In this document: in pieces, positions 6,659 through 57,103 of the stretch
Position numbering within the stretch: the stretch's first letter is position 1
How the letters are laid out: every line of letters begins with the position of its first letter
Source of the DNA: Octopus sinensis
Taxonomy: Eukaryota
Direction: 5' to 3'
Length of the DNA: 64,000 nucleotides
NCBI RefSeq assembly: GCF_006345805.1
Contig: NW_021833461.1
Location: forward strand, 9,540-73,539
Notes under the pieces: model-generated
Told to the model about the DNA's origin: nothing
The model's input: the letters and a program-made list of their open reading frames with translations, nothing else
The model's database searches: none
Translations under genes and position numbers: made by a program

Positions 6659-6909
6659 GGTACTATTTAAGAAGAGTGGTCCCGTTGCGCGCGCTCGCGC
6701 ATCCGCACTGGCTAGTCGTGACTAGTCAATCCTACGACTATCTAGCAAATAAATAAATTTTTTAAACAAAATATATAAAACACAAAAACACAAAGTAAAT
6801 AATGTTTTAAACAAAGTAAATAAAACACAAAGTAAGGATCGACTAGTCACGACTAGCTGGCGTGGATGCTCGGGTGCGCGCACCGGGACCACTCTTCTTA
6901 AATAGTACC
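6659..6909. mobile_element. MITE nested in the hAT element
   Basis: ~70-bp imperfect TIRs beginning GGTACTATTTAAGAAGAGTGGTCCCG; no clear TSD. Confidence 0.75.
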
Positions 6910-12542: not shown

Positions 12543-12572
<30 letters not shown>

Positions 12573-12573
<1 letters not shown>

Positions 12574-13235
12574 ATAGAAATATTAAAATTACTAAGTCTC
12601 TCTAAAAGAGAACAACGGCAGCGTTCCCGGAAAATATTAGTTATCGCCATACTAATATGGCATTCTTATAAAAATAAGAAAAAATAAGAAAAAAGCTGAC
12701 CGCTTATTAGCTCCATGAGGCCATCGCCTTAAGTTAGCTATTTGATACACATCTGTATCCATATAACCTTTGAACAAGGGAGGTCAGTCGCTCCACACTA
12801 CTTCTTATTTTCTTATTTTTTCTTATTTTTATAAGAATGCCATATTAGTATGGCGATAACTAATATTTTCCGGGAACGCTGCCGTTGTTCTCTTTTAGAG
12901 AGACTTAGTAATTTTAATATTTCTATTATTGAAAACAAGTGGATGTATTCCACCGAAGCTAGGTAAATAAAACCTTTGAACAGAGATTGTCGGAAGCGAC
13001 ACCTACTGGTTTGGCTACGCTGCATTGAAAAGGGGCAATACCCCGAAACGCGTCTGTAGCTGCCGGCCAAGTAGTGTGGAGCGACTGACCTCCCTTGTTC
13101 AAAGGTTATATGGATACAGATGTGTATCAAATAGCTAACTTAAGGCGATGGCCTCATGGAGCTAATAAGCGGTCAGCTTTTTTCTTATTTTTTCTTATTT
13201 TTATAAGAATGCCATATTAGTATGGCGATAACTAA

Positions 13236-13237
<2 letters not shown>
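12573..13237. mobile_element. Family A HHR element, head-to-head inverted insertion in (TA)n
   Basis: Left arm 12573-12803 is the reverse complement of the family A unit; right arm 12804-13237 carries the HHR. Confidence 0.85.
13019..13060 (+). ncRNA. Type I hammerhead, U3-A8 compensatory core
   Basis: GCTGCA-TTGAAAA-GGGG caata CCCC-GAAA-CGCG-TC-TGTAGC. Confidence 0.85.
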
Positions 13238-13303
<66 letters not shown>

Positions 13304-16037
13304 TTGTGTGTTCATAGAGGTGGCTCCATTAACCACTACTGCCTGGCTCCTATCTTTCAGGAAGTTATACAACCACACTCCAAGTTTTCCAGCTATGCCG
13401 AGGTCACGTAGTTTGTGGCATATCATACCATGATCCACCTTGTCAAAAGCTTTTGCAAAATCAAGGTAGATTACGTCCACATTTGATTTGTTGAGTAACT
13501 ACCTCAACACCCAGTCATAATGCTGTAAGAGCTGGGTCAGCCAGCTCCTACCTGGTCGAAAACCATGCTGGGTATTACTCAGCAAGTTATTTTCCTCAAG
13601 GAATGCGATTAGTTTCTTTCTAACTATCCGTTCCATGACTTTGCTGATGTGTGAAGTCAGAGAGATAGGCCTATAGTTTTTGGCATCTGCTCTACTTCCC
13701 CCTTTTTGTATTGGGCATATTATTCGCAAGAAAGCTCTGGAAGAGAATCTTGAGGGGTTTTGCCAGGGCATGCTTACACACTTTGAGGAGGATGGCTGGG
13801 AAACCGTCTGGACCAGCAGCTGAGTTTGTGTCCACTTCATCTATGGCTAGTAGGACATCTTTTTCGCTGATGTCAATACATTTTATTGTAACCGCCTCGC
13901 TGGTTATAGGTGAGGCGGCAAAGAAGTCCACTAGTTCGTTCACTTGTCTGTGTTCCAACGGGGTAGTAAAGACACTTTTGAACTGGTCATTTAGCATCTC
14001 ACTGATCATAGTTGGACTGTCTGTGAGGGAGCCTTTTGGAGGAGGGGTCCTATCTTGTAGTGCACTGAGACTGTTTCTTTCGCGTAATGAAAGAAGGCCT
14101 TTGGGTTTGATTTAATGTTTTTTATAACCCAGGCTTCTTTGTCTGCTTTCTCCTTCACATAGGATTGTTGCAGCCTTTTTTCGATCTCCATCAGTGTTGT
14201 TTTTAGGCGGGACGTTTCGCTACTTTTGGGATGTTGGTTGAGACGATTTGCAACCTTCGTCCGTCGTCTCATGAGGATCTTCCTGTCTCTTGGAATCTTG
14301 CTCCTATTTGTTTTGGCCTTGTGCTCTGGGACATATTTCTGGCATACGGCTTGCACAGAAGACATGAAACATTCTAGTTTCATGTCAATGTCTGGTGTGG
14401 AGAGACATTCCGGCCAGTCCTCTCTGAGGATCTCTTTTTGGATCGACTTCCAATCTGCTTTGTGGAAGTTCAGATTGGAGAGATTTCGGGTGCTTCCTTT
14501 AGGCTGTATGTCTCTGGTTACTTTCGGCCCAAACATAGACAGCTCTATTATGTTATGATCCGAAACTGATGTCGGTGTCACTTTTACATCATGAATGATG
14601 TCCATATTGTTCGTGAAGCAGAGATCCAGAATGTTATTCGCCTTAGTTGGCTTGAGTACAACTTGCTCCATGAATAAGGCATTGGTGAGGTTGAGCAGGG
14701 ACTCCACCTGTACTTGCTTGCAATGATTCATTCCTGAGAGTATGTGACCTTCGGGCCATTTGACGTTGGGGAAGTTGAAATCACCCATACGAAATATGGT
14801 CACGTGGTGTTCCAGATTCATGAGGATTTCTTTAATTCTTGTGAGGCAATCTTCAAACTTGCCTATGTGATTTGGGGGCAATATGTATTGCATATGACTA
14901 TATTATGTTGTCTTATGTATACAATTAAGGTGTCACATACCGAATTTGAGTATGTCATCAAGACCTGGGGTGTGAGGTCATCTCGGATGTATACAGCAAC
15001 TCCACCATGGCTCCTTTCCCTTCTGTCTGTTCGCAGTATGGCATAGTTTGGTATGTGTACTTCTGTGTCCTCTATATCAAGGTTGAGGTGAGTTTCCACA
15101 AGTGCTATGCATAGGGCTTGATTGCATGCAGTAAGATCTCTCAGGAAAGAAATTTTGTTTCTATTTTGATGCAACATGCCTCCAATATTTAGTAAAAGTA
15201 TTGGGGTGACGGCTGTGCAGGCGTTAGGGGAGGCCATGCTGTGTCTGTTGACTGCGGTGGTCTTGCATAGTGGTGGACAGGGTTCCTTCTCTGAGCTTGG
15301 TGTAGCAAGGTTAGCTGCCGGACAATTCTTTCCGCCATGCATAAAAAAGACTCTTGCTTAGCTGCTGCGTTGCGCAGAACATCTGAGGAGCGCACTTCGT
15401 TTTTGAAAGTTTTCCTGGGAGACATTTCTTGTGTTCCCTCGGTAAAGTTTTTCTCTTTGAGTCCCCTGAAGTTCTGGCGGGGTGTCGGGTGGGCGAACCG
15501 GCAGTTTTTGCCGTCCTCACCATGCCAACATTTGCCTCGCAGGTAGAACTTACAGGTTCTTCGGTGCCTTCCAGATTTCTTTTTCCTGAAGTGTACTGGG
15601 TGGCATTGGATCCTCCATGGGGTTCTCTGCTGTTTGTGTGGTGGGTTGGGGTTTCAGCTTTGGTTGTTTTGCCTTTTCCCTCCTTATTTTTGTTTTCGGT
15701 CCTTCCTTTTTTCTTCTGTTTTTCTAATTTTTCTAATTTTTCATTTCTTCGTAGGACCACTAGTACATAGGGGGCTTCCGGTTTCTGCTCCCTTGGCTCC
15801 CCTATCCTTCACTACTTGGTGGTTCACCGGGGTAGATGATCCATTTTCCTGAGGAACCCCTGGATCACAGAGACTTCCGGCTTCCTTCTCTTTTTCGTCC
15901 TCTTCATCCTCATCAGCCTTGCCACAATAATTTTCAATTATGTTGTCCAGTGTTTTGATGTGTGGTCTTATAATCATGTAAAACCGGATAAACTCATTTT
16001 TCTTCCGCTCTATCTGGTCAATGGTTCTATGAAAACC
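13304..16037 (-). mobile_element. CR1/L2-group LINE, frameshifted: ORF1 remnant, APE endonuclease and partial RT; truncated at both ends by (TA)n
   Basis: APE: LLLNIGG, IALVETHL, GGVAVY, MGDFNFP, NILDLCF, SDHNII. RT: AAGPDGFP, NYRPISLTS, QHGFRPGRS, YLDFAKAFDKVDH. Confidence 0.92.
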
Positions 16038-16155
16038 ATATATATATATATATATATAAGGTTAATCCAAACAAGAAAACAAAAAAGACAACAACGCAAA
16101 GAGGTGGAACAATTAAAGTATTATTAGGCGCTCAGGAAAAAATGGAAGAAGGAGG

Positions 16156-16190
16156 GTATGACGTTTCGAGCGGGGCTCTTCGTCGGAAAC
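16156..16190 (-). ncRNA. Minimal type I hammerhead (Neptune pLTR)
   Basis: Minus strand: GTTT-CCGACGA-A-GAGC ccc GCTC-GAAA-CG-TC-ATAC; weak helix I. Confidence 0.65.
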
Positions 16191-17855
16191 ATAAGAGAAA
16201 GAAAGATCCCGAGGTGGGAGGACAGAGGGAAAAAAACGCGAGTGGTCTTCACGAGGTAAACATACTGAAAGGCAGGAAGTCGTAGACGAGAGGGGACAGG
16301 TTTTCAAAGACAGGAGAGCGGAAAAAGAAGGAAGGTAAAAACACAATGAGTGAGAAGAAGAGGGTGTGTATGTATATATATGTAAGGCGACGGCTAGTGG
16401 CGAGCAGCGGTCGTAACGGTGTGCGAGATGACAAGTGTGTGTTTATTAGTGCGTGCGTCTGTGTGTAAGTGTGTGTGCGTTGGGCGAAGGCTAGTGGACG
16501 TAGCAGTCACAGGTCAGTAGTAAAAGGAGGAAGAAGGGGAATGTGTGTGTGCGTATGTACGTGCCGTGTGTGTGTTTTGTTGTAGTATGTGTGTGTACGT
16601 GTGCGATTTGTTGTGTGTATGGCGAGTAACTTTGCTTAACAGAGTGTATATGTAGATGTGTGTGTGCTTATATGTGCGTATATGTATACTTGTGTGCATG
16701 TATGTATGTGTGCGTGCGCGTGTGTGCGCGTGTTTAGGTGTGCGTATGTATGTGTGTGTCTGTGTTTATATGTGTGTACGTATGTGTATGTGTGCGTGCG
16801 CGTGGAGGTATATGTTGGGTGTGTGTATGTGCCGGTGTGCATGTGAATTTGTGTGTGTTTGTACGTGTGTAAGTGTGTGTGCGTGTATTGTATATATATA
16901 TGTAAATGTGTGTGTGTGAGTGCGTGGGAGTGAATGTATGTATGTGTGTGCGTGTGTGTACAAAAAGTAGGGGTATTATATGTGTGTGTATATATATGCA
17001 TGCAAGGAAACAATTTGCAACTGACGGAATGATGGAAAAATGCTCCCGCGGTGACAGGCGTAAGAGAAACCCAAGAACACGCTGGCCCCAGATACGAACC
17101 CGAGATTTAGCCAGAACCCACAGGCGTGGTGCAAGCATGTATGTATGCGTGCGCGTGCGCGCACATGCAAGTCTGTGCGCGTGCATGCGAGTGTGTGTGT
17201 AAGTATGTGTGTGTGTGGATGTGTGAGTGTGTATGTGTGTATGTCTGTGTGTATGTCTGTGTGTATGTGTATCCGATTGAATGTAAGTATGTGTGTGTAT
17301 ATGTGTGTGTGTATAGGTGCATGTCTGTATGTATGTGTGTGTATGCGTGTGAGTGTGTATGTATGTATGTGTGTATGTGTGGAAGTGTGTGTATGTGCAT
17401 GTGTGTGCGCGTGCATGCGAGTGTGTGTGTAAGTGTGTGTGTGTATGTATGCGTGAGTGTGTATGTGTGTATGTCTGTGTGTATATGTGTCCGTATGAGT
17501 GTATGTAAGTATGTGTGTGTGTATGTGTGTATGTGTATGAGTGTATGTATGTATGTGTGTGTGTATGTGTGTATGTGTGGAAGTATGTGTGTGTATGTAT
17601 GTATGTATATGTGTGTGTATGTATGTATGTGTACGTGCGTGTGTGTGTGTATGCATGTATGCGTACATGCGTGTAGGTGTATGCGAGTGCATGCATGCAT
17701 GTATGTGCGTATGTATGTTTATGTGCATGTGTGTAGGTATATATGTATGTGCGTATATGTGTGTGTGTGTATGCATGCGTGTGTATGTAGGTGTGTAGGC
17801 GTGTGTGTATAGGTGTATGTGTGTATGTATGTATGGGTGTGTGTCTGTGTATGTT

Positions 17856-17886
<31 letters not shown>

Positions 17887-19524
17887 ATGAGTGAAGGTAT
17901 GAATGTATGTGTGTGTGTGTACATATGTAATGTATGTATGTATGCGTGTGTGTGCGTATGTATGCGTGTGTGTGTGTATGTGTGCGTGTGCGTGTATATG
18001 TTGGTGTGTGCGTATGTGAGTGTGAGTGTATGGGTGTATGTCATGCATGTGTGTGCGCGTGCAGGCGAGTGTGTGTGTAAGTATGTGTGTGTGTAGGTAT
18101 GTGTGAGTGTGTATGTGTGTATGTCTGTGTGTATGCGTGTGCGTATGAGAGTATGTAATTATGTGTGTGTGTATATGTGTATGTGTATGGGTGTATGTAT
18201 GTATGTATGTGTGTGTGAATGTGTGTAAGTATATGTGTGTGTGCGTATATGTGTGTGTATGTGTGTGTATGTATGTGTGTATGTATGTGTGTAGGCGTGT
18301 GTGTATAGGTGTATGTGTGTATGTATGTATGGGTGTGTGTCTGTGTATGTTTGTGTGTGTGTGTATGTATGTATGTATGAGTGAAGGTATGAATGTATGT
18401 AAGTGTGTGTGTGTATGAATGTATGTAAGTGTGTGTGTGTACGTATGTAATGTATGCATGTATGCGTGTGTGTGTGTGTATGTATGCGTGTGCGTGTAGG
18501 TGCGTATGTATGTATGTGGGAGTGTAGGTGTGTGTGTGTGTGTGTATGTGTGCGTGTGCGTGTATATGTGTGTGTATGTGTGTGAGTGTGAGTGTATGTG
18601 TGTATGTCTGTGTGTATGTATGTCTTAAGTATGTATGTGTGTGTATGTATGTATGTGTGTGTATGTGTATGTGTGTGGGTATGTGTGTGTATGTGTGTGT
18701 ATGTATGTGTGTAAGTGTGTGTAAGTGTATGTATGTAGGTATGTAGGTGTGCGCACAGGCATACATGCATGTGTGTGTATGTATGTATACATACGCACGC
18801 ACGCACACGAAGCACGCTCACACACACAACACACAAACAATACAACGCACGCATATGGAGCCGACCCCACCCGAGGCCCGTGCCAAGGCGCGCGCGCGCA
18901 GACCCCCGAACACCCACACCACGAGAACCGAAGATCCATCAACCCAAGAACCCGAAAGAAGGGGGGTGCGCCAGGATGCAATTATATGTATGTGTGTGTG
19001 CATTCGTGTAAACGTGTGCGTGTGTAGGTATGTATGTATGTATGTGTGTGTGCATACGTGTATGTGTGCATGTGTGTGTGTGTGTATGTAAGTATGTGTG
19101 TAAAGTATGTATGTACAATGTGTGTGTGTGTGTATGTGTGTATGTATGTGCGTATGTATGTGTGTATGTATGTATGTATGTATGTATTTATGTATGTGTG
19201 TATGTGTGTGTGTAAGTGTGTATGTGTGTGTGTATGTGTGTATGTATGTATGTATGTGTGTATGTATGTGCATGTTTGTTTGTTTGTTTGTGTGTGTATG
19301 TATGTATATATGTATGTGTGATTAAATGTGTGAATGTATGTACGTAGATGTGTATACGTATGTGTGTGTGTGTGTGTGAACGGGCGTGTGTGTGTGCGCG
19401 TGGGTATGTAAGGTGTGGAAGAATGTGTGCGTACAAGTGAGTGAGTAGGTTGTGTGTGGGTGGTGTGTTGGAGGTAGGTGTGTAGGAGGTAGGTATGTGG
19501 GGGTATTTTTTCGAAAAAAAAAAC

Positions 19525-21190
19525 CTAAGAGGAGGGGGCTGTGTTGAGTTCGTGTGGGGTAGTGGTTTGTAGGGTGAAGATTTAGCGTTGCTCCAAGTGG
19601 AGCCTAGATAGTGGACGACCATTGTGTGGGGGGAGACCAAACACTGAGATGTCATCTGGGGAATGGCTGGCCGAGCGGAAGTGGCGTGCGACGGGAGAAA
19701 AAGAGTGTAGGCGAACGTCCCTCAGATGTTCTGCGAATAGGTCAGACAACCGGCGTCCCGTCTGTCCTACATACCGCATCCCGCATAGGTTGCATTTAAT
19801 GCAGTATATGAGGCCAGACGAGGTGCACGTAAAAGAGTGTCTAATACGTACAGTTCGCCGGTTGGAGCCGGTGACAGCAGTGGTGTTGGTGATGAAGGGG
19901 CAGGTGTTGCAACGGGATCTAGAGCACGGGAAAGATCCGTGTGGGGCTGAGGGGGAAGGAGAGAGGGTGCTGTGGACCAGGAGGTCGCGTAGATTCTGGG
20001 CTCGTTTGAAGGAGGACAGGGGTGGGTTGGGGAAAATGGGGCGGGTTGTGGGATCGAGCTGGAGGCGACGGAAAAGGAGGGGGAAGGGTGTGCGGTTGGG
20101 GGGGTGAGAGGAAGGTGGTGCGGTCGATGCGACGGGCGCGGGCGAAGGCATTTGAGATGAGTATAGGTGGGTAACCTCGGAGTCTTAACAGGCGGGCCAG
20201 GTATTGAGATTGGGTCTCGAAAACCTGGTCGCGGCTGCACAAGCGTCGGTGGCGGAGGAACTGGGAGTAGGGGATGGCTCGTTTGGTGTGGAAGGGGTGG
20301 GAGGAGGAGAAGTTGGGATAGAGGTGGGAATCCGTGGGTTTAAAGAAGGCGGTGGTGGTGAGAGAGTGGGAGGGGTGGTCGATTCGGAGAGAGATGTCAA
20401 GGAAGTTGACAGAGGTGTTGGAGATGGTTGAGGTGAATTGTAGGGAGGGGTGAAAGTTGGAAAGGAAAGAGATGAATTGGCAGAGAATTTCACGGGAAAG
20501 GGAGGTGGCACCTATGCAGTCGTCTATATAGCGACCGTACAGTTCAGGGGTCGGCCTGGAGAATTGGGAGAATACTTGGGCCTCAATGTAGCCAAGAAAG
20601 AGATTAGCGAAATTGGGGCCCATTCTAGTTCCCATCGCGACCCCGGACATCTGTTGGTACGTTTCCCCGGCGAACGTGAAACAGTTGAGGGTTAGAACGA
20701 GCTCTGCCAGGCGGAGAAGTGTGGGGGTGCTGGGGGTGGGGTCGGGACGACGGTCGAGGAAGTGTTGGAGGGCTAGGAGACCGTCATTGTGGGGAATCAC
20801 TGGGTACAGGGATTTTACATCTAAAGTGAAGAGGAGGTGTGAGGGGCTGGAAGGGAAGGAAAAGGAATTGAAGAGACGGAGGGCGTGGTTGGTGTCGTGT
20901 ATGTGGGATGGGAGGGCTGCGACTAAGGGGGACAGGATGCGGTCGAAGTATAGGGAAATGTGTTCAGTGGGGCAATTACAGGCAGAGACTATGGGACGGC
21001 CAGGATTATTGGGTTTATGGATCTTGGGAAGGAAATAGATGGTGGAGGTGCGGGGTGTGCGGACGATGAGGTTGGTGGCGGTGGGGGGGAGAGCAGTAGA
21101 GGAGATGAGGTCGTGGATGGTGGAGGACACTCGCTGTTGGTAGGAGGAGGTGGGATCGGAGGGAAGGAGGCGATAGAAGAGGGGATTTTG
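19525..21190 (-). pseudogene. Penelope-like RT + GIY-YIG endonuclease (Neptune-type), frameshifted
   Basis: FLPKIHK..PGRPIVS, TLDVKSLY, GVAMGTRMGPNFANLF, YGRYIDD; Cys linker PCSRSRCNTC; IYCIKCNLCGMRYVGQTGRRLS..EH. Confidence 0.93.
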
Positions 21191-21225
21191 AAATACATAT
21201 ATATATATATATATTTATATATACA

Positions 21226-21616
21226 TAGAGAGACTTAGTAATTTTAATATTTCTATTATTGAAAACAAGTGGATGTATTCCACCGAAGCTAGGTAAATAA
21301 AACCTTCGAACAGAGATTGTCAGAAGCGACACCTACTGGTCTGGCTACGCTGCATTGAAAAGGGGCAATACCCCGAAACGCGTCTGTAGCTGCCGGTCAA
21401 GTAGTGTGGAGCGACTGACCTCCCTTGTTCGAAGGTTATATGGATACAGTTTGTGTATCAAATAGCTAACTTAAGGCGATGGCCTCATGGAGCTAATAAG
21501 CGGACAGCTTTATTCTTATTTTTATAAGAATGCCATATTAGTATGGCGATAACTATTATTTTCCGGGAACGCTGCCGTTGTTCTCTTTTAGAGAGACTTA
21601 GTAATTTTAATATTTC

Positions 21617-21621
<5 letters not shown>
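21226..21621 (+). mobile_element. Family A HHR element: one ~363-bp unit plus ~33-bp terminal redundancy
   Basis: agagagacttagtaattttaatatttctattat at both ends; (TA)n flanks. Confidence 0.88.
21349..21390 (+). ncRNA. Type I hammerhead (family A)
   Basis: Identical to 13019-13060. Confidence 0.85.
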
Positions 21622-21659
<38 letters not shown>

Positions 21660-21749
21660 TATATTTATATATACATATATATATATTTATATATATATAT
21701 ATTTATATATATAATATATACATATATATATATATTATACATATATATA

Positions 21750-21796
<47 letters not shown>

Positions 21797-21847
21797 ATTA
21801 TACATATATATATATTTATATATATATATTATATATATATATATATA

Positions 21848-22449
21848 TAAGAAATATTGAGTTTCTAAATCTCTCGTAGAGAGGTGTACGGTGGTGGAGC
21901 GATATAATGGTTGTATACTGTCAATCTAACAACAACGTGACAGTAGGGGGTACACCACCGTTATATAGCCCTAGGAGGCATCGAACGCCTCCTGACAGCT
22001 TCGACACATTTTATCCTGTGTCCTTATATACACATACGAAGGGGAGACAAACACCCCCAACTGCCGGAACTGCATCTAGGGACACCGTGTTTAAGGATCA
22101 TTGTCCTTCATCGGCCTAGAATAGCAGACACCGGTCAGCCGGCGATATCTGTCTCGACTTCGTATCTGTATATATCTATAGTCAGTGAAGTCTATTCACT
22201 GATTATCAAAATAAGAAATATTGAGTTTCTAAATCTCTCGTAGAGAGGTGTACGGTGGTGGAGCGATATAATGGTTGTATACTGTCAATCTAACAAGAAC
22301 GTGACAGTAGGGAGTACACCACCGTTATATAGCCCTAGGAGGCCTCGAACGCCTCCTGACAGCTTCGACACATTTTATCCTGTGTCCTTATATACACATA
22401 CGAAGGGGAGACAACACCCCCAACTGCCGGAACTGCATCTAGGAACTGC

Positions 22450-22450
<1 letters not shown>
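21848..22450 (-). mobile_element. Family B HHR element: 1.6 tandem units of 364 bp in (TA)n
   Basis: aagaaatattgag starts at 21849 and 22213. Confidence 0.88.
22075..22120 (-). ncRNA. Type I hammerhead (family B; U4C and G12U changes)
   Basis: Minus strand: TCTAGG-CCGATGA-AGGA caatga TCCT-TAAA-CAC g GTG-TC-CCTAGA. Confidence 0.75.
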
Positions 22451-22516
<66 letters not shown>

Positions 22517-22537
22517 ATATATATATATGTATTATAA

Positions 22538-23150
22538 ATAGATGTGTGTATTTTTACCTTGTTAACAATTAGCACGGAAAAATAAATAAATAAATAGTTA
22601 CCAGGGCAGCAAAAATCTCACAAGTAAAGGTGTTGTAACTCCTTGTTTATAAAGGTAGAAACTTTGTGTTTACGTTGAATATTTTGAATAATATGAATAA
22701 AAAATGGAGTTAACGCAGGTGTAAACAAGTATTTTTACTTTCGACACATGTTTCGAAAATTCCACTGGTACTATTCAAAAGAATAAATGGTATAAACAAT
22801 GCAATCTACTCATCGGGAAAGTGAAAAAAACCAAACTCGTCAACACGACATTTTAGCAAAAAATGATGGATTTGTATAGCGATAGACAGAACGCTATTAA
22901 TATTGTTTAAAAAAACGTTATATGATATAACGTCATAAGTAGCTAACAGAAAGAGTAGGGATATTAATAGTGAATGTTAAATATAAAGGAAATTAAAGTT
23001 TAAATTATATATAATGATAGAGGCTACTTATATGCACTAAATGTATGTTTTTGCCAATGCTTACATCTGTATGCTCGCTCAATAACCGTGTTTACTAGAG
23101 TATTTTTAGAAAAAATAATGAAAAATAGCTCAGAGTTGCAGAGAAGACAG
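22538..23150 (-). mobile_element. Family C AT-rich HHR element / solo pLTR in (TA)n
   Basis: Non-repetitive block between TA tracts containing an HHR. Confidence 0.65.
22737..22822 (-). ncRNA. Type I hammerhead with long helix II region (family C)
   Basis: Minus strand: ACTTTC-CCGATGA-G..(~55 nt)..C-GAAA-CATGTG-TC-GAAAGT. Confidence 0.75.
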
Positions 23151-23182
23151 ATATATATATATGTATATATATATATGTATAT

Positions 23183-23230
<48 letters not shown>

Positions 23231-23250
23231 GTATATATAATATGTATATG

Positions 23251-23298
<48 letters not shown>

Positions 23299-23370
23299 GT
23301 ATATGTATTATAATATATATATATGTATATATATTGTATTATATATATATATGTATCTATATATGTGTTG

Positions 23371-23403
<33 letters not shown>

Positions 23404-23404
23404 G

Positions 23405-23442
<38 letters not shown>

Positions 23443-23443
23443 G

Positions 23444-23476
<33 letters not shown>

Positions 23477-23634
23477 GTATATATATATGTATGTTATATT
23501 ATATGTATATATATATTGTTATATTTCGGAATGGTCATTTTGCCAGTTTAGCCAATAAAAGCACACGCACTATATATTTGGTGTTACTTTGCTTCAGTGT
23601 TATTTATTTTTTACATTAATCTTAATCTTATTTC

Positions 23635-23679
23635 GGCCAGAGTTCTTTCGTCACACTCCTATGACCGCATCAGTGGTCC
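23635..23679 (-). ncRNA. Hammerhead variant in the inverted pLTR
   Basis: Reverse complement of 27533-27577 (one substitution). Confidence 0.65.
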
Positions 23680-24281
23680 TTTGTTTTCTTCTCACTTATT
23701 TGTGTCTCTCCTTACTAACCGTCAGCCATTTTGTATTTCTATTGTATGTCTTCATTTGCGCATGCTTATATCTCTATGTGCGTTTATGTTTATTTAGTGT
23801 GTGTATGTGGGGGATACCTATAATATTTGTATCTTCTGTTTATATATGTTCATGTAATTTGTATTTTGCAGTTTGTTTTTTGTTTTTTGTTTTTGTTTTT
23901 GTTTTTGTTTATTCTTATTTTGTTCATGTGTTTACATCCACCCATTATTATCATTACATATGCTTGTATGTATGTATGTATGTATGTATAACAACAATAC
24001 TAGTAATAATAATAATAAATTGAATCGAAAATATATATATATATATATTATATATATATATACACATATATATATACATATACACACACATATATATATA
24101 TAGTTATTTATTCATTTATCTGTGTATTTATTGTTTTCAGGATCCTCTATCGTCATATGTTGTGGTGTGTGTTAGTGCTCCATTCTAGTTTTCTCTATAT
24201 GTATATGTATATATATATGTACATATATATGTATATATATGTATATATATATATGTATATATATATATGTATATATATATG

Positions 24282-24313
<32 letters not shown>

Positions 24314-24386
24314 AAATAAATAAATAAATGACTATATATATATATGTGTGTATATGTATATGTATATATATATATATATGTATATA

Positions 24387-24955
24387 TTGTCATCAAAAAA
24401 GGGGGTAGAATTAATTAATTGTTAATAAATTCGACCAAGCAGTATTCGGTATGTAAAGACCATTTACGGTAATTTGAAGTATTATTTATAAAAATATGGT
24501 AAAGTATAAAAATTCACTTTACCACACACCGAACTTTTCAGAAATAGCAGCCAAAGATTTGGCTATTTCTTCAACTGCAAATAAAAGTCTCCAGACAATG
24601 CATACTCAAAATAACTCACATAGGTATAAGGGAAAAACAATGAAAGATCACATCCATATACGATACCCGAGGACAGTCTGTTTCTGGATTTGTGGGTAAA
24701 ACGCCACTTTTCCTTCATCAGCTCAGAGATTTCTTCTGATTTAGATTTGAAAATACTAAGAATCAAACATACCCGTCCGATATCTGTAACAACGGACAAA
24801 CCATGCCAGACACCCAGTACTAGCGAATCCAAGGCATTGTCTGGAGACTTTTATTTGCAGTTGAAGAAATAGCCAAATCTTTGGCTGCTATTTCTGAAAA
24901 GTTCGGTGTGTGGTAAAGTGAATTTTTTTACTTTACCATATTTTTATAAATTAAT
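24387..24955. mobile_element. Family E HHR element with inverted arm, nested in the (TA)n of the PLE pLTR
   Basis: 24834-24950 is the reverse complement of ~24486-24601; host pLTR sequence resumes on both sides. Confidence 0.85.
24667..24726 (-). ncRNA. Type I hammerhead, canonical core (family E)
   Basis: Minus strand: CTGAG-CTGATGA-A-GGA aaa GTGG..CCAC aaa TCC-A-GAAA-CAG a CTG-TC-CTCGG. Confidence 0.85.
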
Positions 24956-25068
24956 ATATATGTATATATATATTTTTTTTTTCGATTCAATTTATTATTA
25001 TTATTACTAGTATTGTTGTTATACGTACATACATACATACATACAAGCATATGTAATGATAATAATGG

Positions 25069-27039
25069 GATGATGTGGACAATTGTTCTGGGACCCCAGA
25101 AACGTACAGGAAATAATTTCCAAGCCTGGAACAATGATATCCCGGCACTGTATGGACTTCGCAAGGACCATAAAATAATTACTGACCCTATAGCAGGACC
25201 ACCAACAAGACCAGTCTGTGGAGCGAATATCGCTAGCAATTACAGCATCTCCTACTTCCTCTCAATGATCATACGCCCTATAATCCGAATGTCACCTGAT
25301 GTTTGTGACAGCACAGAAGATCTCCTCAGCAGGATCGATGACTGTAACAGAACTTGTGACCTGACAGGATGTATGGTGGATAGCATGGATGTGGTATCCC
25401 TATACCCATCGATCGACGTAGATTTTGCGGTGGAGAAGTGCGTGGAGATGATCAATGAGAGCCAGGTGGAGTTCTGTAATGTCAACACAGAAGAACTGGG
25501 CCTCCTACTTAGACTGACATGTAATACTGAATACTTAGATAAACATAATCTTAGTAGTTTCTGCCCCAGTAGATGTTTAAGAGTAGGTAGACCGCCCAAA
25601 TTACTTCTATGACTAGGAAGACACATATAGAAAGATGGCGCGGATGGACCAGAGCCATACGGAGCCCTGCAAATGTCCATCAGATAAAGAAAATGATCGC
25701 ACATGCACTAGGAGCTAGTATAAGAATTACCCTAAAAGGCCACACGTTTAAGTTTAATAATAAAATATATGCCCAGGACGAGGGGGCAGCCATCGGCGTT
25801 AGTATCGCTGGTGATGTGGCCAACCTTTTCATGGTATGGTGGGACAGAAGGCTTAAAGAACGCCTAACACAGAACTCCATACTCGTAAACATGTACTCCC
25901 GTTATGTTGATGATATCAACATAGTGGTAAAGGCACCCCCACAAGAGAGCAATGTTGATATAGTAATAGAAACTAATACTATGGAGAGCATCCAGCAAAT
26001 AGCTAACTCCATCCACCAGAGTATTAAGGTCACAATAGACTACCCCACTAAACACCCCAACCATAGACTACCAGTACTAGACACCGAACTCTGGCTAGAA
26101 ATTGTGAATAATAAAACCCAAATCCTTTATTCATACTATGCCAAACCTATGGCCTCAAAATACTTGATCCACCGGAACTCAGCCATTGCGGACAATGCCA
26201 AATTCAATATTTTGATGGCAGACCTCGTCAGAATAATGAGAAATGTGCCATGCATGTGCGAGCCCACAGAGTTAAAGAGACACATACAATATTTCATTCA
26301 CCGCATGCAGTTCTCAGGTTACAGCCATAAAGAAAGGATCAGAGTATACAAAGGAGCCATTAAGAAATTTGATAATATATTATGTAATGATAGGAATGGT
26401 ATTTGCCCACTCTATAGGAACAAGTCATGGAACACTATAGAAAGGACAAAAAATAAAATAGGGAAGGTCAACTCTTGGTATGATAGCCATAAATACCAGA
26501 GTGTCATGTTCGTTGACACCACTCCTGGAGGTGAACTGGCGTATCGCTTTAGAAGGACCCTAGACAAACTTAAGCTAAGAATTAAGGTTGTTGAAAAGCC
26601 AGGCAACCCTATCAAATCTATAATTGGTAGAACCTATCCTTTTAGTAGAAGCCCCTGTACAGATAGGTACTGTACTGTATGTAGATTTAGCCCACAAACA
26701 AACTGTAAAGCCAGAAATATGGTCTATAGTATAAGATGTATAGAGGGACGATGCAGTAACAAGACAACGACATACGTAGGGGAAACGGCAAGAAGCATAG
26801 GAGAGCGGGTAAATGAGCATTGGAGACAACTCAAAGAAGGTAAAAGCTCATCGATTCTGTACCAACACGCCGAACAAAAACATGGGGGATCAATCAATAA
26901 CATAGAAATTAAAATATTATCCACACATAGATCAGATGCAACAATTAGACAAATTACAGAAGCTACACACATAATAGAAAATAAACCTAGCCTGAATAGA
27001 AAACTAGAATGGAGCACTAACACACACCACAACATATGA
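25069..27039 (+). pseudogene. Penelope-like RT + C-terminal GIY-YIG endonuclease, 5'-truncated, one frameshift near 25600
   Basis: LYGLRKDHK, PPTRPVCGA, SMDVVSLYPSI, GAAIGVSIAGDVANLFM, YSRYVDD, CTDRYCTVC..C, VYSIRC..YVGETARSIGERVNEH, EA..I..NKPSLN. Confidence 0.93.
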
Positions 27040-27532
27040 CGATAGAGGATCGTGAAAACATAATAAATACACAGATAAATAAATAAATAACTATATATAT
27101 ATATATGTGTGTGTATATGTATATGTATATATATATTTTTTTTTCGATTCAATTTATTATTATTATTACTAGTATTGTTGTTATACATACATACATACAT
27201 ACATACATACATACATACATACATACATACATACATACAAGCATATGTAATGATAATAATGGGTGGATGTAAACATATGAACAAAATAAGAATAAAAACA
27301 AAAAACAAAATACAAAATACAAAATACAAATTATATGAACATATAAAATTACAAATTACATGAACATATATAAACAGAAGATACAAATATTACAGGCATC
27401 CCCACATACACACACTAAATAAACATAAACACACATAGAGATATAAGCATGCGCAAATGAAGACATACAATAGAAATACAAAATGGCTGACGGTTAGTAA
27501 GGAGAGACACAAATAAGTGAGAAGAAAACAAA

Positions 27533-27577
27533 GGACCACTGATGCGGTCACAGGAGTGTGACGAAAGAACTCTGGCC
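27533..27577 (+). ncRNA. Minimal hammerhead variant in the 3' pLTR (CUGAUGC core)
   Basis: GGACCA-CTGATGC-G-GTCAC aggagt GTGAC-GAAA-G aa C-TC-TGGCC; same strand as the ORF. Confidence 0.7.
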
Positions 27578-27755
27578 GAAATAAGATTAAGATTAATGTA
27601 AAAAATAAATAACACTGAAGCAAAGTAACACCAATATATAGTGCGTGTGCTTTTTATTTATTGCTAAACTGGCAAAATGACCATTCCGAAATATACAATA
27701 TCTGTTTCAACACACGACTTCACATAAAAAATCTTGCACAACAAATATTTAAACG

Positions 27756-27792
<37 letters not shown>

Positions 27793-27810
27793 GTGTGTGT
27801 AGTATATATA

Positions 27811-27863
<53 letters not shown>

Positions 27864-27909
27864 GTGTGTGTGTCTATACATAGTATACATACATATGTGT
27901 GTACCTGGA

Positions 27910-27950
<41 letters not shown>

Positions 27951-28493
27951 ATCTGTATACATGTGTGTGTCTGTATACATAGATATATATCCATACACTT
28001 GTATGTGTCTGTATACACACATATATATGTATATCTTTATATATATACATATATAGGTGTGTGTAGATTGCATATATATATAGAGAGAGAGAGAGGGGAG
28101 AGAAAGAGAGAGAGAGACATACATAATATGGTTCTTTGTTAAACAAGCAATCATCAGGAACACAATACGTTCATACGCACAGTCGTGGCTGTACGGCTAC
28201 AAAGCTTGATTAGCAATCCCGTAGTTACGAGTTCAATTCCCACTTGGGCAAGTGTCTTCTACTATATCCCCGGACAGCACTGTGTCTTATAAGTGAATTG
28301 GTAGTGGAAACTGTGTCAAAGCCTGTCGTGTGCGTGTGTTTGTAAGTAGATACTGTGAAGATGTGGCTTAGTGGTTAGGATAATCGGTTCATGACTATAA
28401 GGTCCGGTGCTCGATTCGTGGCAGCACACACGCGAACACTCACATACACACACACACGCGAACACTCACATACACACACACACGCACACGCAC

Positions 28494-28544
<51 letters not shown>

Positions 28545-28664
28545 CATATATTCTTTTATTGCTTTATTTGTTTCTGTCATTTGACTGCGGTCATGCTGAA
28601 ACAAATAAAAGAACAAAAGAATATATAGCTATATATATATATATATTATATATATATATATATA

Positions 28665-28836
28665 AAAGTTGAGTTGTGGGGTATCGCACGAGTGGGATTA
28701 TATAAGAAAAAAGGTTTGAAAATGCAATTTAAACGATGTTTATTTACTTAAATGTAACTTTTGACAATCTTTTACCAAAGAGTGAAACCGGTTAAGTAAA
28801 TAAACATCGTTTAAATTGCATTTTCAAACCTTTTTT

Positions 28837-28840
<4 letters not shown>
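28665..28840. mobile_element. Family K foldback fragment with the 3' half of an HHR
   Basis: ~52-bp inverted arms (28699-28751 / 28792-28843); spacer ends GAAA-CCGG-TT-AAGTAA. Confidence 0.65.
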
Positions 28841-28881
<41 letters not shown>

Positions 28882-28884
<3 letters not shown>

Positions 28885-29039
28885 CGCAGGAGTGGCTGTG
28901 TGGTAAGTAGCTTGCTAACCAACCACATGGTTGCGGGTTCAGTCCCACTGCGTGGCATCTTGGGCAAGTGTCTTCTGCTATAGCATGTGAGTGGATTTGG
29001 TAGACGGAAACTGAAAGAAGCCTGTCGTATATATGTATG

Positions 29040-29074
<35 letters not shown>

Positions 29075-29292
29075 TTGTGTGTCTGTGTTTGTCCCCCTAG
29101 CATTGCTTGACAACCGATGCTGGTGTGTCTACGTCCCCGCCACTTAGCGGTTCGGCAAAAGAGACCGATAGAATAAGTACTGGGCTTACAAAGAATAAGT
29201 TCCGGGGTCGATTTGATCGACTAAAGGCGGTGCTCCAGCATGGCCGCCGTCAAATGACTGAAACAAGTAAAAGAGTAAAAGAGTAAAAGAGT
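28882..29292 (+). mobile_element. Near full-length tRNA-derived SINE with LINE-like tail
   Basis: A box tggctgtgtgg, B box gggttcagtccc, internal (GT)n, tail ggcggtgctccagcatggcc..gactgaaac, then (agtaaaag)n. Confidence 0.88.
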
Positions 29293-29390
29293 ATATATAT
29301 ATATATACATATATTCTTTTATTGCTTTATTTGTTTCTGTGATTTGACTGCGGCCATGGTGAAACAAATAAAAGAACAAAAGAATATATA

Positions 29391-29427
<37 letters not shown>

Positions 29428-29430
<3 letters not shown>

Positions 29431-29650
29431 AAGAACATCTGAAAAATGAAATACCTAGAAATGGATAATGTGGTACCGGTTTCAGATTCTTCAAAATACG
29501 TCTGCCAACATATATTTGACTTATCCTCATCAGCCACATATACCTCGACAATATTTCAAATGTTGCCACATCTATGCCAGTACACTCGTCTGAACGCCAA
29601 AACGTTGACAGAACGAGAACAGTGAAGAAGTTTCAATGAAAATAGTATCG
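29428..29650 (-). mobile_element. Family M HHR element fragment, 3' end in (TA)n
   Basis: Contains a canonical HHR; abuts the 5' end of a truncated LINE. Confidence 0.7.
29468..29539 (-). ncRNA. Type I hammerhead, canonical core (family M)
   Basis: Minus strand: ATGTGG-CTGATGA-GGAT..ATCT-GAAA-CCGG-TA-CCACAT. Confidence 0.9.
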
Positions 29651-30385
29651 ACATGAGTGATGATACCTCTTTCCAAGTGCACATTACCAGGATGGTGACA
29701 AAGTTCAGACGACTGGGTGGGTGGATCCTAAGAACATTCAGAACCAGAGATAAGGAAACCATGATGGTCCTCTGGCGGACATTCGTCCTCAGTCGCCTGG
29801 ATTACTGCTCACAGCTATGGTCACCCACCAGTGTAAAATTAACAGCGGACCTTGAAGCAATCCAGAGAAGATTCACAGAGAGAATCGTCTCTTTGCAACA
29901 GCTCAGCTACTGGGAAAGATTGAAACAGCTAAGACTCTACTCCCTGGATAGAAGACGGGAGAGGTAATATATGTCTGGAAGATCCTGGAAGGAATTGTAC
30001 CAAATTTTGGCATTGTAAGCTACACCAATGCTAGAACGGGACGACACTGCATAGTGCCAAAGATCCCAGCAATGCCGTCACGCTTCAGGACCAGCTTCTG
30101 CAACAGCCTGGGCTTCAAGAGCCCACAGCTTTTTAATATTCTTCCAAAGAGTCTGGGGAACTTGCACAAAGTAGATGTAGCGGTTTTTAAATCAAAGCTG
30201 GACATCTTCCTGTCGAGAGTCCCAGATGAACCTACCTCACGGCAAGAGGTGCGAATGAGAGTAGCTATATCAAACTCCATTCTTCACCAAGTGCCACATA
30301 TTAGACGAGGTTCTTCGCAATAACAGTGTAGCACAAAACGGCGGTGCATCAGCATGACCGCAGCTCTGAGCTGAAACTAGAAAAA
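29651..30385 (+). mobile_element. 3' fragment of CR1/L2-group LINE
   Basis: GWILRTF, SRLDYCSQLWSP, LEAIQRRFT, YWERLKQLRLYSLDRRRER; colinear with 63278-64000. Confidence 0.9.
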
Positions 30386-30427
30386 AATATATATATATAC
30401 ACACATACATACGTATATATATATACA

Positions 30428-30514
<87 letters not shown>

Positions 30515-30516
<2 letters not shown>

Positions 30517-31200
30517 CCAATTAAGTACTGAACACGAAAAAGTGGACAGTCAACATGCTAGATATAGACGTCAAATCGCCATTCTCCACAAAAGATTATG
30601 TTCTCAGATCAAACTCAACACCAACCCAAGCAATAAACAAGTGAAAATATACGAAAAACAATACTCATCCATGTACTGAATCAGTTTCTACTATTATTAT
30701 CCGTAAGGATACCCGTAGTCTTCGTCAGCATGGCCGATATGAATGCAATCTGCTGAACTAGATGCAAAAACGATACCGGAGTTTCATCATGTGCGTAGAG
30801 TTCAACCAATTACATTCGAATGTGTATTTCAAATGCCTTCCACCTTGGCGCGTTGAGACCCGAAGAAAATAGCCTGCAGCTAATAATTAGCAGCAGTCAA
30901 TTTATCGGTTAGAGAACATATTTATTTTTTATAAAATTAATAAGGGTAGAAATCAATATTTATCAATTAAAACCAGTGGTCTAGCATATTAAAAAAATCC
31001 GAAGATTAAATATTTATATATACCAATTAAGGACTGAACACGAAAAAGTGGACAGTCAACATGCTGTCTATATCTAGCATGTTGACTGTCCACTTTTTCG
31101 TGTTCAGTCCTTAATTGGTATATATAAATATTTAATCTTCGGATTTTTTTAATATGCTAGACCACTGGTTTTAATTGATAAATATTGATTTCTACCCTTA

Positions 31201-31210
<10 letters not shown>
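30515..31210. mobile_element. Family H HHR element: ~505-bp unit, terminal redundancy and inverted arm
   Basis: ataccaattaag at ~30515 and ~31020; 31066-31207 is an inverted copy spanning the unit junction. Confidence 0.87.
30669..30733 (-). ncRNA. Type I hammerhead, canonical core (family H)
   Basis: Minus strand: CCATG-CTGACGA-AG-ACTA..TATCC ttac GGATA..TAGT-A-GAAA-CTGA t TCAG-TA-CATGG. Confidence 0.87.
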
Positions 31211-31249
<39 letters not shown>

Positions 31250-35057: not shown

Positions 35058-38021
35058 CAGTGGTTTCCAACCAGGGTTCCGCCAGTACAGTCCAGGGGTT
35101 CCGCAAGAAGTTACATAAATGCTAAACTCGACAGTAAATTTTAATTCTCCTGTGCAGATATGTGTGTACATGTTAGGCCTACGTGTATATCTACGAGTTG
35201 CACGCCAGCGTAGATGACCCTGATCCTTGGTGTGTATGTGTAGGCCTACGACGTGTACAACTACGAGTTACTCGCCAGCGTAGATGACCCTGATCCTTGG
35301 TGTGTACATGTACGTGCACATCTACGAATTGCATGCCAGCTTAGATGATGGTTTAGTTTTCTTTTGTAAAATACGAGTGACTATATTTGGAAGAAACATT
35401 TTAACTGCGTAAGCCATTTATTTAGGTGTTGTTGTTAATACGCCTTTTAAAATATCTTTAGCTTTTTAAAAGGTGTTTTTGTAAAATATTTTTCTTGTAT
35501 GACTTCTATTAATATATGGTCAAATGTTAAGATTAAAAAATCCGGAAGAGAGTTGAATTACATATGTAGAAAAAAAATAAGAAATAGGGAAACTGATACT
35601 AAATTATAAGATATGTAAATATGCATAAATATTAATTCCTTACAAATTTCTAAATTAGAACAATGAACAAATAAATGACATTTTAAATTCAAATCCGAAA
35701 ATATATTTTAATTATTATATGCATATTGTTTAAATATAATGAAATACCTAGTACTAAAAAAAAACATTAATAAAAAAGCTAAATTTTACATCATTTAACT
35801 CGCTACACTTTAAAGATCATTTCGTCCTGCCACTATTAGGTTTGCTTTCATATATATATACAATTCTGCTTACAGCCTTACAAGTATGGATAGATTTCTG
35901 AAAAAAACGTAAGTTAGATACAGATGAAGAGACGCAGGGTCTGAGGCAGTCTGTTGAAGCTGCAGCCACTGCCAGTGATGCTGCCTCGTCGAAATTACCA
36001 AGAAATGATGGAATTAACCTGCAACTAAAAGTTCGTCAATATTGTGAAAACTACATAGCTCTGGGAATGGAAACCCAGACTGCTCTTCACCTTTGTGTAC
36101 TGTTTCTGGGGAGAAGCTGGCTAATAGTACTATAGCACCAGCCAAGCTGAAACGACACTTAACAACTAAACATCCAGAGTTGTCAGGCAAAAAAGAACAA
36201 TATTTTAAAAGAGAATTGGCATTTAATAAAAGGCAAGTTTGCCAAAAAGTTCAAGTTGAGTGACAAAGGACAAGAAGCAAGTTATGCTGTGGCGGAGATA
36301 GTTGCAAGAAAAATGAAATCTCATACCATCGCTGAAACTGTAATTTTACCTGCATGCCAGGAAATAGTGAGGATAATGTTTGGAGAGGATGCTGTATCAG
36401 ATCTAAATAAAATTCCATTTTCTGACAACATAATAAGTAGGCGCATTCAAGACATGTCAGGAGACATTGAGTGCAATATTAAGTCAAAAATACTGAAACA
36501 TAAGTTGTTTGCACTTCAAGTTGATGAGAGTACAGACATCACTGGTAAATCACAGCTCCTTGTATTTGTTCGTTTTATTAATGATGAAACTATTGTAGAA
36601 GACGTCCTGTATTGCAAAGAGTTGCCAGAAACAAGAAAAGGACAAGATGTATTTGATGTTTTAAATTCATATTTAGAGTATTGTGGATTGAACTGGAAAA
36701 ACTGTGTTGGTATTTGTACAGATGGTGCCCCTGCAATGACAGGATGTCTTAAAGGCTTTGTCCCAACCGCACAAAAACAAAATTCAAATGTTTCATTCAT
36801 AGAGAAGCACTAGTTGCTAAAACTTTTGGACCTGAACAAAAATCTGTATTGGGTATGGTAGTGAAAATAAATAATTACTTCAAAATGAGGCCACTTAAAT
36901 GTCGACAGTTTGCGAAACTTTGTGTGGGTATGGAAGCAGACCATTTCACCTTAATCCAGCACACAGAAATACGATGGTTGTCAAGGGGAAAAGTATTGTC
37001 TCGTTTTTACGAATTAAGAGAAGACCTTTTGACCTTTTGTTTGCAAGAAAACCTGAAAGACTTTGAAAAATGTTTGAGTGATGACCATCGGTGTTCCAAG
37101 TTAGCATATTTTGCCGATATATTTCATGAGCTAAGCCTCTTGAACAATGGCATGCAGGGCATGAACGAAAATATATTGTCTTCTACTGACAAAATAAATG
37201 CTTTTCAGAAGAAATTGACAATATGGAAGAAACACATAGCTGCAGGAAATTTGGAAATGTTTCCAAGTGTTTTTAAAAGGAATTGTCAAGAAACTTCGTT
37301 ACTAATTTTGAACCATTTGCACACTTTGTTAACAAATCTTGACAAATATTTTCCATCGATATCTGTTGACCAGTATGACTGGATTAGAAACTCATTTGTG
37401 GAATTTGAGCCATTTGAAGAACAGTTCACATTATCAGAAGAAGAAGAACTTGCTAGTGTTTTAAATGACAGAACATTAAAGTTGAAGCATTCTGAGCTTC
37501 ACCTGAATGCATTTTGGTTGCTGGTTGAAAAGGAATATCCTGCAAACGCCCAGAAAGCGCTGCGACTTCTTGTGCAGTTTTCAACCACCTACTTCTGTGA
37601 ATTTGGATTTTCAACTCTGACAGCCATCAAGCACAAGAAGCGAGCACAATTGCTGTCTGTGGAAGATGAACTTCGTGTGTGTCTATCGACCCAATCTTAG
37701 GGAGTTGTGCAAGAAACACCAGGCTCAAGTTTCTCATTGAGTTTTTGATGAGAATAAATGTAATCTATTCAAACTAAAGTTTTTTTAATACATGATTTAA
37801 TAATAACTGTAGATGCAAGAATAAAATTGCATATGTACGTGACAATTTTTTACAGTTTGTGATTTTATTGTAAATAAATCTGAACATGAGTATTTTCATT
37901 TCATTAATTAAATGCTGTTTTTTTTTTTGCGTAAGACAATTAAATTATTGCACAGGGGCTCCTCGAGCCAGTGGAATGTTTCCTTGGGGTTCCGCTCCAG
38001 CAAAAAGGTTGAAAAGTACTG
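35058..38021 (+). mobile_element. Full-length but inactive hAT transposon, Buster/Charlie type
   Basis: TIRs CAGTGGTTTCCAACC / GGTTGAAAAGTACTG; 8-bp TSD ccctaacc / cactaacc with central TA; ~62-bp subterminal repeats at 35160-35350. Confidence 0.93.
35886..37740 (+). pseudogene. hAT transposase with BED finger remnant, frameshifted
   Basis: [49 protein letters not shown]. Confidence 0.92.
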
Positions 38022-54016: not shown

Positions 54017-54259
54017 ATACAATATGTTACATTACTCGGTAGTCAAGATAAAACTCTGAGTTTCAGATGCCGAAGTGGAAATCCACAACACCATCTCTTC
54101 GCATAACCGAAGAGATGGTGTTGTGGATTTCCACTTCGGCATCTGAAACTCAGAGTTTTATCTTGACTACCGAGTAATGTAACATATTGTATAGATAAAT
54201 TTCCTCTATTTACATAATATTGAGGTCTCTTTCTTTCTTTTGTTATCTTACCGTTTTAT

Positions 54260-56108: not shown

Positions 56109-57103
<995 letters not shown>

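Follow-up and report, generated by a model that had tools for sequence, protein, structure and literature searches.

A stretch of 64,000 nucleotides from the genome of Octopus sinensis (NCBI RefSeq assembly GCF_006345805.1, contig NW_021833461.1, positions 9,540 to 73,539 of the forward strand; hereafter "the window", numbered from its first letter) contains, between positions 12,573 and 31,210, a chain of repeats with (TA)n between them, in which hammerhead ribozyme motifs of type I recur. We consider the non-coding families A, B, C, E and M of this range, together with family J from elsewhere in the window, to be non-LTR (long terminal repeat) retrozymes, i.e. non-autonomous Penelope-like elements (PLEs), with a probability of about 0.8. 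Genome-wide counts refer to the 2.72-Gb genome, and statements on cited papers refer to the portions of their text at hand.

Hammerheads were searched for with a type I descriptor with palindromic helix III, using 25 block shuffles of the window as background. The window contains 9 hammerheads with a perfect core versus none (maximum 0) in the shuffles, and 11 versus a shuffle mean of 0.04 if one core deviation is allowed, which confirms their presence as noted in an earlier sequence-only reading of this DNA. The descriptor had to admit U3-A8 pairs, U4C and a bulged helix II; a strict canonical version returns 1 motif only. An Rfam scan of the window displays no hammerhead family among the best 150 of 237 matches, which contain only microRNA noise from microsatellites.

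Family A occurs twice in the range. One insertion is head-to-head, with an inverted arm (12571-12803, L end), a direct arm (12816-13240, S end) and (TA)n on both flanks, where S and L denote the short and the long end site, both downstream of the predicted ribozyme cut. Its hammerhead (13019-13060, + strand) displays a U3-A8 core, a palindromic 6-nt helix III and a predicted cut after position 13054. The other insertion (21226-21622, +) comprises 1.09 units of 363 bp with an L end, and its hammerhead (21349-21390, +) has the same U3-A8 core. Family B is present as 1.65 units of 364 bp (21847-22446, −); its hammerhead (22120-22075, −) has a U4C core and a G12U change that is private to the window copy and not found in the family majority. 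Family C forms a head-to-head insertion (24383-24956; 0.81 + 0.22 units of about 561 bp, L + S ends) with a canonical hammerhead (24727-24666, −), and family M another one (30501-31225; 1.11 + 0.31 units of about 510 bp, S + L ends) with a hammerhead from the perfect-core scan (30733-30669, −). A family E fragment (29427-29647, −; unit of 426 bp) carries a canonical hammerhead (29539-29468, −). The earlier statement that each family is bounded by (TA)n does not fully apply to E, which has (TA)n on one side only; on its other side, a fragment of a long interspersed nuclear element (LINE) is joined to it at 29647. Outside the range, a head-to-head array of 558-bp family J units (57100-59934) contains five hammerheads; these five units are 98-99% alike, and one hammerhead carries G12A.

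Two PLEs with open reading frames (ORFs) lie in the same range. A broken, Neptune-like element (16035-21214, −) has a CxxxxCxxC linker and a long TG-rich 3′ untranslated region (UTR). The second (23527-27760, +) has reverse transcriptase (RT) and GIY-YIG frames at 24950-27039 and an inverted 5′ terminal repeat, and the family C insertion is nested inside it. Both carry hammerheads, as had been proposed, in the form of variants: a U4C variant near 16186-16156 (−), and one read from the sequence near 27540-27575 (+). Two further repeats, H and K, had been counted among six or more non-coding families, K as a partial one. K (22535-23140, −; hammerhead at 22816-22743, −, U4C core) is the truncated 3′ end of a Hydra-like element with RT and endonuclease frames, and the window copy keeps its last codons. 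H (28664-28842; hammerhead at 28761-28793, +, U3-A8 core) is an inverted 3′-end fragment of a Neptune-like PLE; in locus L111, this end continues upstream into a tandem element of 5.9 kb that has an RT and a GIY-YIG frame. Clade names of PLEs are given from motifs only. Neither H nor K is a non-coding tandem unit, and the range therefore holds five non-coding families, not six or seven.

The units of these families follow each other head-to-tail with periods of 363 (A), 364 (B), 558–562 (C), 507–510 (M), 426–427 (E) and 558–560 bp (J), in arrays of up to about 10 units and with a GC content of 33–45%. The longest ATG frame in circularised units of the six families spans 38–102 amino acids. These are short tandem units with one type I hammerhead each, as in retrozymes; they encode no protein and have no LTR (primer binding sites and polypurine tracts were not searched for). 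First-look candidates, which are not copy numbers, amount to 1210 (A), 2368 (B), 1908 (C), 2409 (M), 1164 (E), 1040 (H) and 3585 (K), and we estimate roughly a thousand or more copies per non-coding family. Two kin groups are recognizable: A, B, their relative A2 and a piece in locus L133 on the one hand, and C, J, family L and perhaps M on the other, J being about 67% like C. A2 is an older non-coding sister of A (162 exact motif matches, about 78% identity). Older sisters of A and B with altered cores and another helix III palindrome are located at L163-L182 and L133:5146-5520. A short inverted element in the window (60278-60564), probably of family L, is related to the tail of C and J; an intact core was not found in this copy.

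The hammerhead core is intact in 71/77 (A), 19/22 (B), 94/99 (C), 41/48 (M) and 16/16 (E) instances, or 241 of 262 pooled, with overlapping loci possibly counted twice. The exact A core occurs 1,148 times in the genome, versus 0 for a reversed control. Within the A/B/A2 group, the fold is retained while the sequence changes: the helix III palindrome is ACGCGU in A and ACUAGU in A2, and the core is C3-G8 in some members and U3-A8 in others. This two-sided palindrome change together with the core switch argues for selection on the dimer fold. Covariation at U3-A8 is known from Schistosoma PLEs (PMC4209133). Helix III had been described as always tiny, which does not apply to M with its 4-bp stem and 3-nt loop. 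Dimer cleavage of PLE hammerhead variants was reportedly described by Lunse and colleagues in 2017. Single hammerhead segments fold weakly (z-scores +0.4 to −2.5), which speaks neither for nor against dimer activity; the predicted circular units are strongly folded (z −4.8 to −7.0 versus mononucleotide shuffles). Self-cleavage of the units is predicted from motif conservation. Contigs of four sequencing runs presumed to be RNA cover 30/30 bins of the A unit with no change at the cut site, but they may be DNA, and contigs are blind to ends and circles; the tandem junction is present in DNA as well. No RNA data set is listed for family A. Further hammerheads with a U4C core are found in the window at 54029-54180 and 47239-47204 and at loci L110, L185 and L199. 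The one at 54 kb lies within a 150-bp inverted repeat, and a family sharing its 9-nt helix III occurs at other loci.

Insertion anatomy at (TA)n

The ends of the insertions are fixed at two sites. Measured from the predicted cut, S and L lie at 175 and 238 nt in A, 179 and 234 nt in B, about 194 and 291 nt in C, about 163 and 252 nt in M, and 199 and 263 nt in E, with positions blurred by up to 15 nt into TA. Hence, ends fall 160–290 nt past the cut, with 55–97 nt between S and L. The start sites finish in short TA-like motifs which resemble the target.

Among 43 head-to-head loci, which are top hits and whose sampling favours the long end in one arm, 31 have two canonical ends and 12 have one arm that ends elsewhere. 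The 31 canonical loci comprise 30 S+L pairs, one L+L pair and no S+S pair. An unranked sample of 16 A loci was drawn from a list ordered by position, most of them with a single motif and on C1; in this sample, S+L is seen in 9/9 readable two-arm insertions, and TA-rich DNA is present at 24/24 readable ends; most ends of the ranked loci are also located at (TA)n. Arms are 0.1 to 10 units long and cross the cut site without indels. The joints between arms (n=38) display an overlap of 1–7 nt in 21 cases, are blunt in 6, and contain a gap in 11.

PLEs are known to form partial tandems and inverted 5′ copies, to carry an optional tail and to favour (TA)n (PMC8557442); their tail is delimited by two RT start sites within the element (PMC11167929). 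The octopus insertions display the same set of features: partial tandems with an inverted, 5′-truncated copy, an optional tail, and the bias towards (TA)n. With their period equal to the unit, the lack of a long ORF, and ends and inversions of PLE type, A, B, C, E, M and J correspond to the retrozyme-like mini-PLEs at TA microsatellites that the sequence-only reading had suggested.

The clustering is genuine: the range contains 6 insertions of non-coding families in 18.6 kb, compared with 4 hits at other PLE-anchored loci that add up to about 535 kb, a comparison for which the window was picked after the fact. Since each insertion leaves (TA)n on both flanks, later insertions could nest beside it, and a chain may build up in this way; no function of the cluster is implied.

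Template of the arrays

Based on this anatomy, we propose the following sequence of events. Retrozyme arrays would be transcribed, and neighbouring hammerheads would pair via the palindromic helix III and then cut, whereupon some monomers would be ligated to circles. A PLE protein with RT and GIY-YIG domains, acting in trans, would open (TA)n on both strands, and each DNA end would prime a cDNA, starting at S in one case and at L in the other. These cDNAs would extend over a variable distance along a multimer or around a circle before being joined, often at 1–7 nt of microhomology. In addition, an L1-group LINE appears to have adopted family A as a sequence-specific target (see below). In its full form, the proposal is that the arrays record rolling-circle reverse transcription, with a PLE dimer priming both (TA)n ends on one circle, one site per arm, and that the LINE is a hyperparasite which sits upstream of the ribozyme, is freed between host hammerheads and rides the PLE route as a 5.7-kb unit. 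We put this forward tentatively, the odds being against it in its entirety.

Variation within arrays bears on the template. Full units of family C differ by 0.089% within arrays (111 pairs) and by 0.55% between arrays (1017 pairs), a private substitution is present in every unit of both arms in 4/5 multi-unit two-arm arrays, and the junction at the cut site is clean. This uniformity, together with the array-private variants, points to a bottleneck of one unit, followed by expansion on insertion. There is a somewhat better than even chance, in our view, that this bottleneck is the one a circular template would give; as no other family is younger than C, the comparison has limited power.

A number of points weigh against the proposal. 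Units of A arrays differ by 1.26% within versus 1.80% between arrays, with one array dominating, and those of M by 1.34% versus 1.52%. A ten-unit A array (L112, C1:169358600-169363300) contains a partial repeat of a four-unit haplotype. A monomer circle was therefore not the sole template, and these observations point to multimeric templates or to later change at the DNA level. Furthermore, 17/38 inversion joints are without microhomology, and the assembly contains many small indel errors. In the PLE studied in PMC11167929, the hammerhead is not needed for insertion in vitro, and both strands use the same start sites; of nine Xenopus retrozyme dimers, one was cleaved in vitro (Li, Clavereau, Pollet; bioRxiv 10.64898/2026.07.22.740005). 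As to the enzyme, no ORF-bearing PLE with a terminal repeat of A, B, C, E, M or J was found at about 130 PLE loci, which are a partial sample, and alignments of the tails to 7 autonomous ends give z ≤3.4, compared with 7–22 among kin non-coding families.

The same class of element and the same PLE enzyme may be at work with a template that is always an uncut linear multimer, in which case the hammerhead would serve RNA turnover or be a passenger, and no circles would be involved. The heterogeneous arrays of A and M, in which unit haplotypes are common to both arms, are in agreement with this, as are the tandem occurrence of a 5.7-kb unit of A plus LINE and the dispensability of the hammerhead in vitro (PMC11167929). 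On the other hand, C arrays of up to 10 units are near uniform with fixed private variants, which implies passage through one unit in about each generation, and the period of the A+LINE unit equals the distance from hammerhead to hammerhead. We regard an exclusively linear template as less likely than not.

A LINE inserted in family A

In the unranked sample of A loci, two of 16 are interrupted at an identical base by the same L1-group LINE, which is 5.35 kb long and accompanied by a duplication of 17 bp. The empty target is seen in the window at 21325-21341 (+), 17 bp in length and about 45 nt before the hammerhead cut; a full-length LINE within an A unit, with the 17-bp duplication, is located at L237:945-6292, and another at L253+L250. 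ORF1 encodes a zinc knuckle, and ORF2 an APE, an RT and a zinc finger domain (Pfam zf-CCHC, Exo_endo_phos, RVT_1, zf-RVT); the nearest solved structure is human L1 ORF2p. Genome-wide, exact 5′ ends of the LINE follow the A site in 33/33 cases. Hits of the 3′ pattern precede the A site in 27/32 cases, the other 5 being chance-like (reversed control: 20). Among 17 LINE stretches, 13 have an A flank, 2 are stacks of the type LINE-duplication-LINE, and 2 lack a 5′ end.

At C3:72.50-72.53 Mb, match positions display about five A+LINE units with a 5.72-kb period and one inverted copy. Such a tandem with an inverted copy suggests that PLE machinery has probably re-copied the A+LINE composite, too. 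Conceivably, the spread of the LINE goes back to one old insertion in a single A unit, copied by PLE and without target specificity. The 33 intact 5′ ends per about 36–40 3′ ends, which are a high full-length share, and the tandem A+LINE arrays with their inverted arm would fit. Yet the 15 readable flanks (including the first two loci) are divided between two A subfamilies, 8 in one and 7 in the other, both of which also occur empty, and the LINE-duplication-LINE stacks are found at two loci. Subfamilies and stacked pairs together support true site specificity of the LINE, and a single old insertion appears unlikely.

LINEs of the Tx1 clade that target other transposons are known (PMC4494074, PMC4640811). 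Like the octopus LINE, Tx1 in Tx1D and Tx1-Mar in Mariner-N4 are APE-type LINEs at one site of another transposon, and tandem insertions around one duplication are known for a SINE (short interspersed nuclear element) partner (Kojima 2015, PMC4494074). The octopus element differs by its target, a hammerhead retrozyme unit, and its likeness to Tx1 refers to domains and target, not to a tree. A literature search for a Tx1 element with a hammerhead target found no paper.

Partner elements, related systems and significance

Three or more groups of PLEs with long open frames reside in the genome, and their frames comprise about 800–900 amino acids. Partner searches in the flanks of Neptune-like, Hydra-like and third-group PLEs were negative, and no sequence kinship with the ends of the two window PLEs was found; hence, the suggestion that these two mobilise the units is not supported. 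A U3-A8 core with a 6-nt palindrome is a layout common to A and the resident Neptune-like elements, which we take as a lead only. Two candidates were rejected: an autonomous A partner hinted at by loose contig ends is A2, and an A/B-like piece in L133, which lies 2 kb behind a GIY-YIG frame, represents an insertion of its own.

The units could also be detached pseudo-LTRs (pLTRs) of autonomous PLEs, inserted in truncated form, with arrays grown later by unequal crossing-over or slippage. For H and K this is the case, as truncated ends, and the core and palindrome layout of A as well as the partial four-unit duplication in L112 would agree with it. For A, B, C, E, M and J, which the sequence-only reading would have had to give up as novel had they been solo pLTRs, the observations speak against it: the unit junction is identical in all arrays of a family, both arms can be multi-unit with common private variants, and in the unranked sample no A locus (0/16) continues into a PLE frame. 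Among ranked loci, the few PLE hits are the window neighbours and L118, L054, L055 and L169, the latter four not inspected. We therefore consider a pLTR origin of the six families quite improbable. That the L1-group LINE is the mobiliser of A, with A as its terminal repeat or SINE, is hardly credible: all 33 readable LINE 5′ ends do lie in A, but the LINE carries a 17-bp duplication of its own within the unit, its about 36–40 copies stand against 1,215 exact empty A sites, and the ends, inversions and (TA)n targets of A are of PLE type and common to families in which no such LINE is seen.

Non-LTR retrozymes (Cervera and de la Pena 2020, PMC7229834) resemble the octopus units as short non-coding tandem units with GC below 50%, a type I hammerhead and strongly folded predicted circles, and PLEs have been proposed as their mobilisers. 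They differ in unit length (150–450 bp, compared with up to 562 bp in octopus), and the octopus cores are minimal or variant (U3-A8, U4C). The accessible text of that paper makes no mention of fixed double ends, of inverted arms or of (TA)n as a target, and the words "Octopus" and "cephalopod" are absent from it. The preprint cited above (bioRxiv 10.64898/2026.07.22.740005) likewise reports a non-autonomous PLE origin and many families per genome, with units of 51–972 bp. In the portion at hand it rests on co-occurrence and pLTR homology, covers mostly vertebrates and no mollusc, and suggests local growth of arrays at the DNA level, whereas the evidence in octopus is insertion anatomy and no pLTR parent was found. 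In the Anolis Poseidon PLE (Frangieh et al. 2024, PMC11167929), too, a pair of start sites downstream of the hammerhead defines an optional tail, targets are AT-rich, and both strands are cut and extended; its tail is 30–40 nt, compared with 55–97 in octopus, and no strand difference is seen there, while the octopus arms differ. Partial tandems, inverted 5′ copies, a tail, (TA)n bias and head-to-tail multicopy insertions are also shared with Neptune, Nematis and Hydra PLEs and non-autonomous Chlamys elements (Craig et al. 2021, PMC8557442). The 3′ ends of the latter are generally like those of autonomous partners and mostly without hammerheads, whereas the octopus units keep hammerheads and a likeness to partners was not found.

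As 57 families are known from Xenopus, and 16 families with hammerheads from a coral (PMC7229834, bioRxiv 10.64898/2026.07.22.740005), the unusual diversity that had been assumed for the octopus set is not shown; this kind of element is already known, including its PLE link, and many hammerhead families per genome are ordinary. A literature search found no description of octopus or cephalopod hammerheads or retrozymes, though the units may stand under other names in the O. vulgaris library, Dfam or Repbase. Nowhere does the O. vulgaris repeat paper use the term "ribozyme"; of the recently active SINE families, it gives 893 as unclassified and 58 as unknown. Two fixed ends, the S+L arm rule, the array-private variants of family C and the LINE target in A go beyond the literature as far as its text is at hand.

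Other elements of the window and its surroundings are given for completeness. The proteins of the window resemble Octopus proteins, one with a 93% match to an O. vulgaris protein, and a protein labelled O. sinensis is encoded in the genome with 100% identity. Neptune-like PLEs (window 16355-19410, L073-L080) share among copies 3′ UTRs of 1.5–3 kb of degenerate (TG/TA)n. A large Hydra-like group (L183-L222, and K in the window) has 14,841 first-look candidates, frames of up to 914 amino acids, hammerheads with a long helix II and tails of ~150 nt; in its subgroup L211-L222 there is no hammerhead within 190 nt of the stop. Two APE-RT LINE copies (13320-16027 and 60939-63918) are 71% alike, with a CCCH zinc finger in the first frame. 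Broken transposase-like frames with a weak DUF4371 match lie at 36163-37700, and inverted-repeat elements at 43471-43788, 6659-6909 and 46818-47075, the first with TTAGGG-like runs in both arms.

The end pairing, the bottleneck of family C and the LINE target are specific and testable points. In the literature at hand, retrozyme circles as templates of retrotransposition, and the enzyme that would copy them, are still a proposal. The octopus offers young, near-identical families with small RNAs of 363–562 nt, for which start sites are mapped and the target is known, and PLE frames are present in the same genome; these features make the question testable in the existing in vitro PLE assay. If true, the rule of one site per arm would account for both the PLE tail and the inverted structure. 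A LINE that targets a parasite with a ribozyme would constitute a three-level dependence, and a new target for site-specific LINEs.

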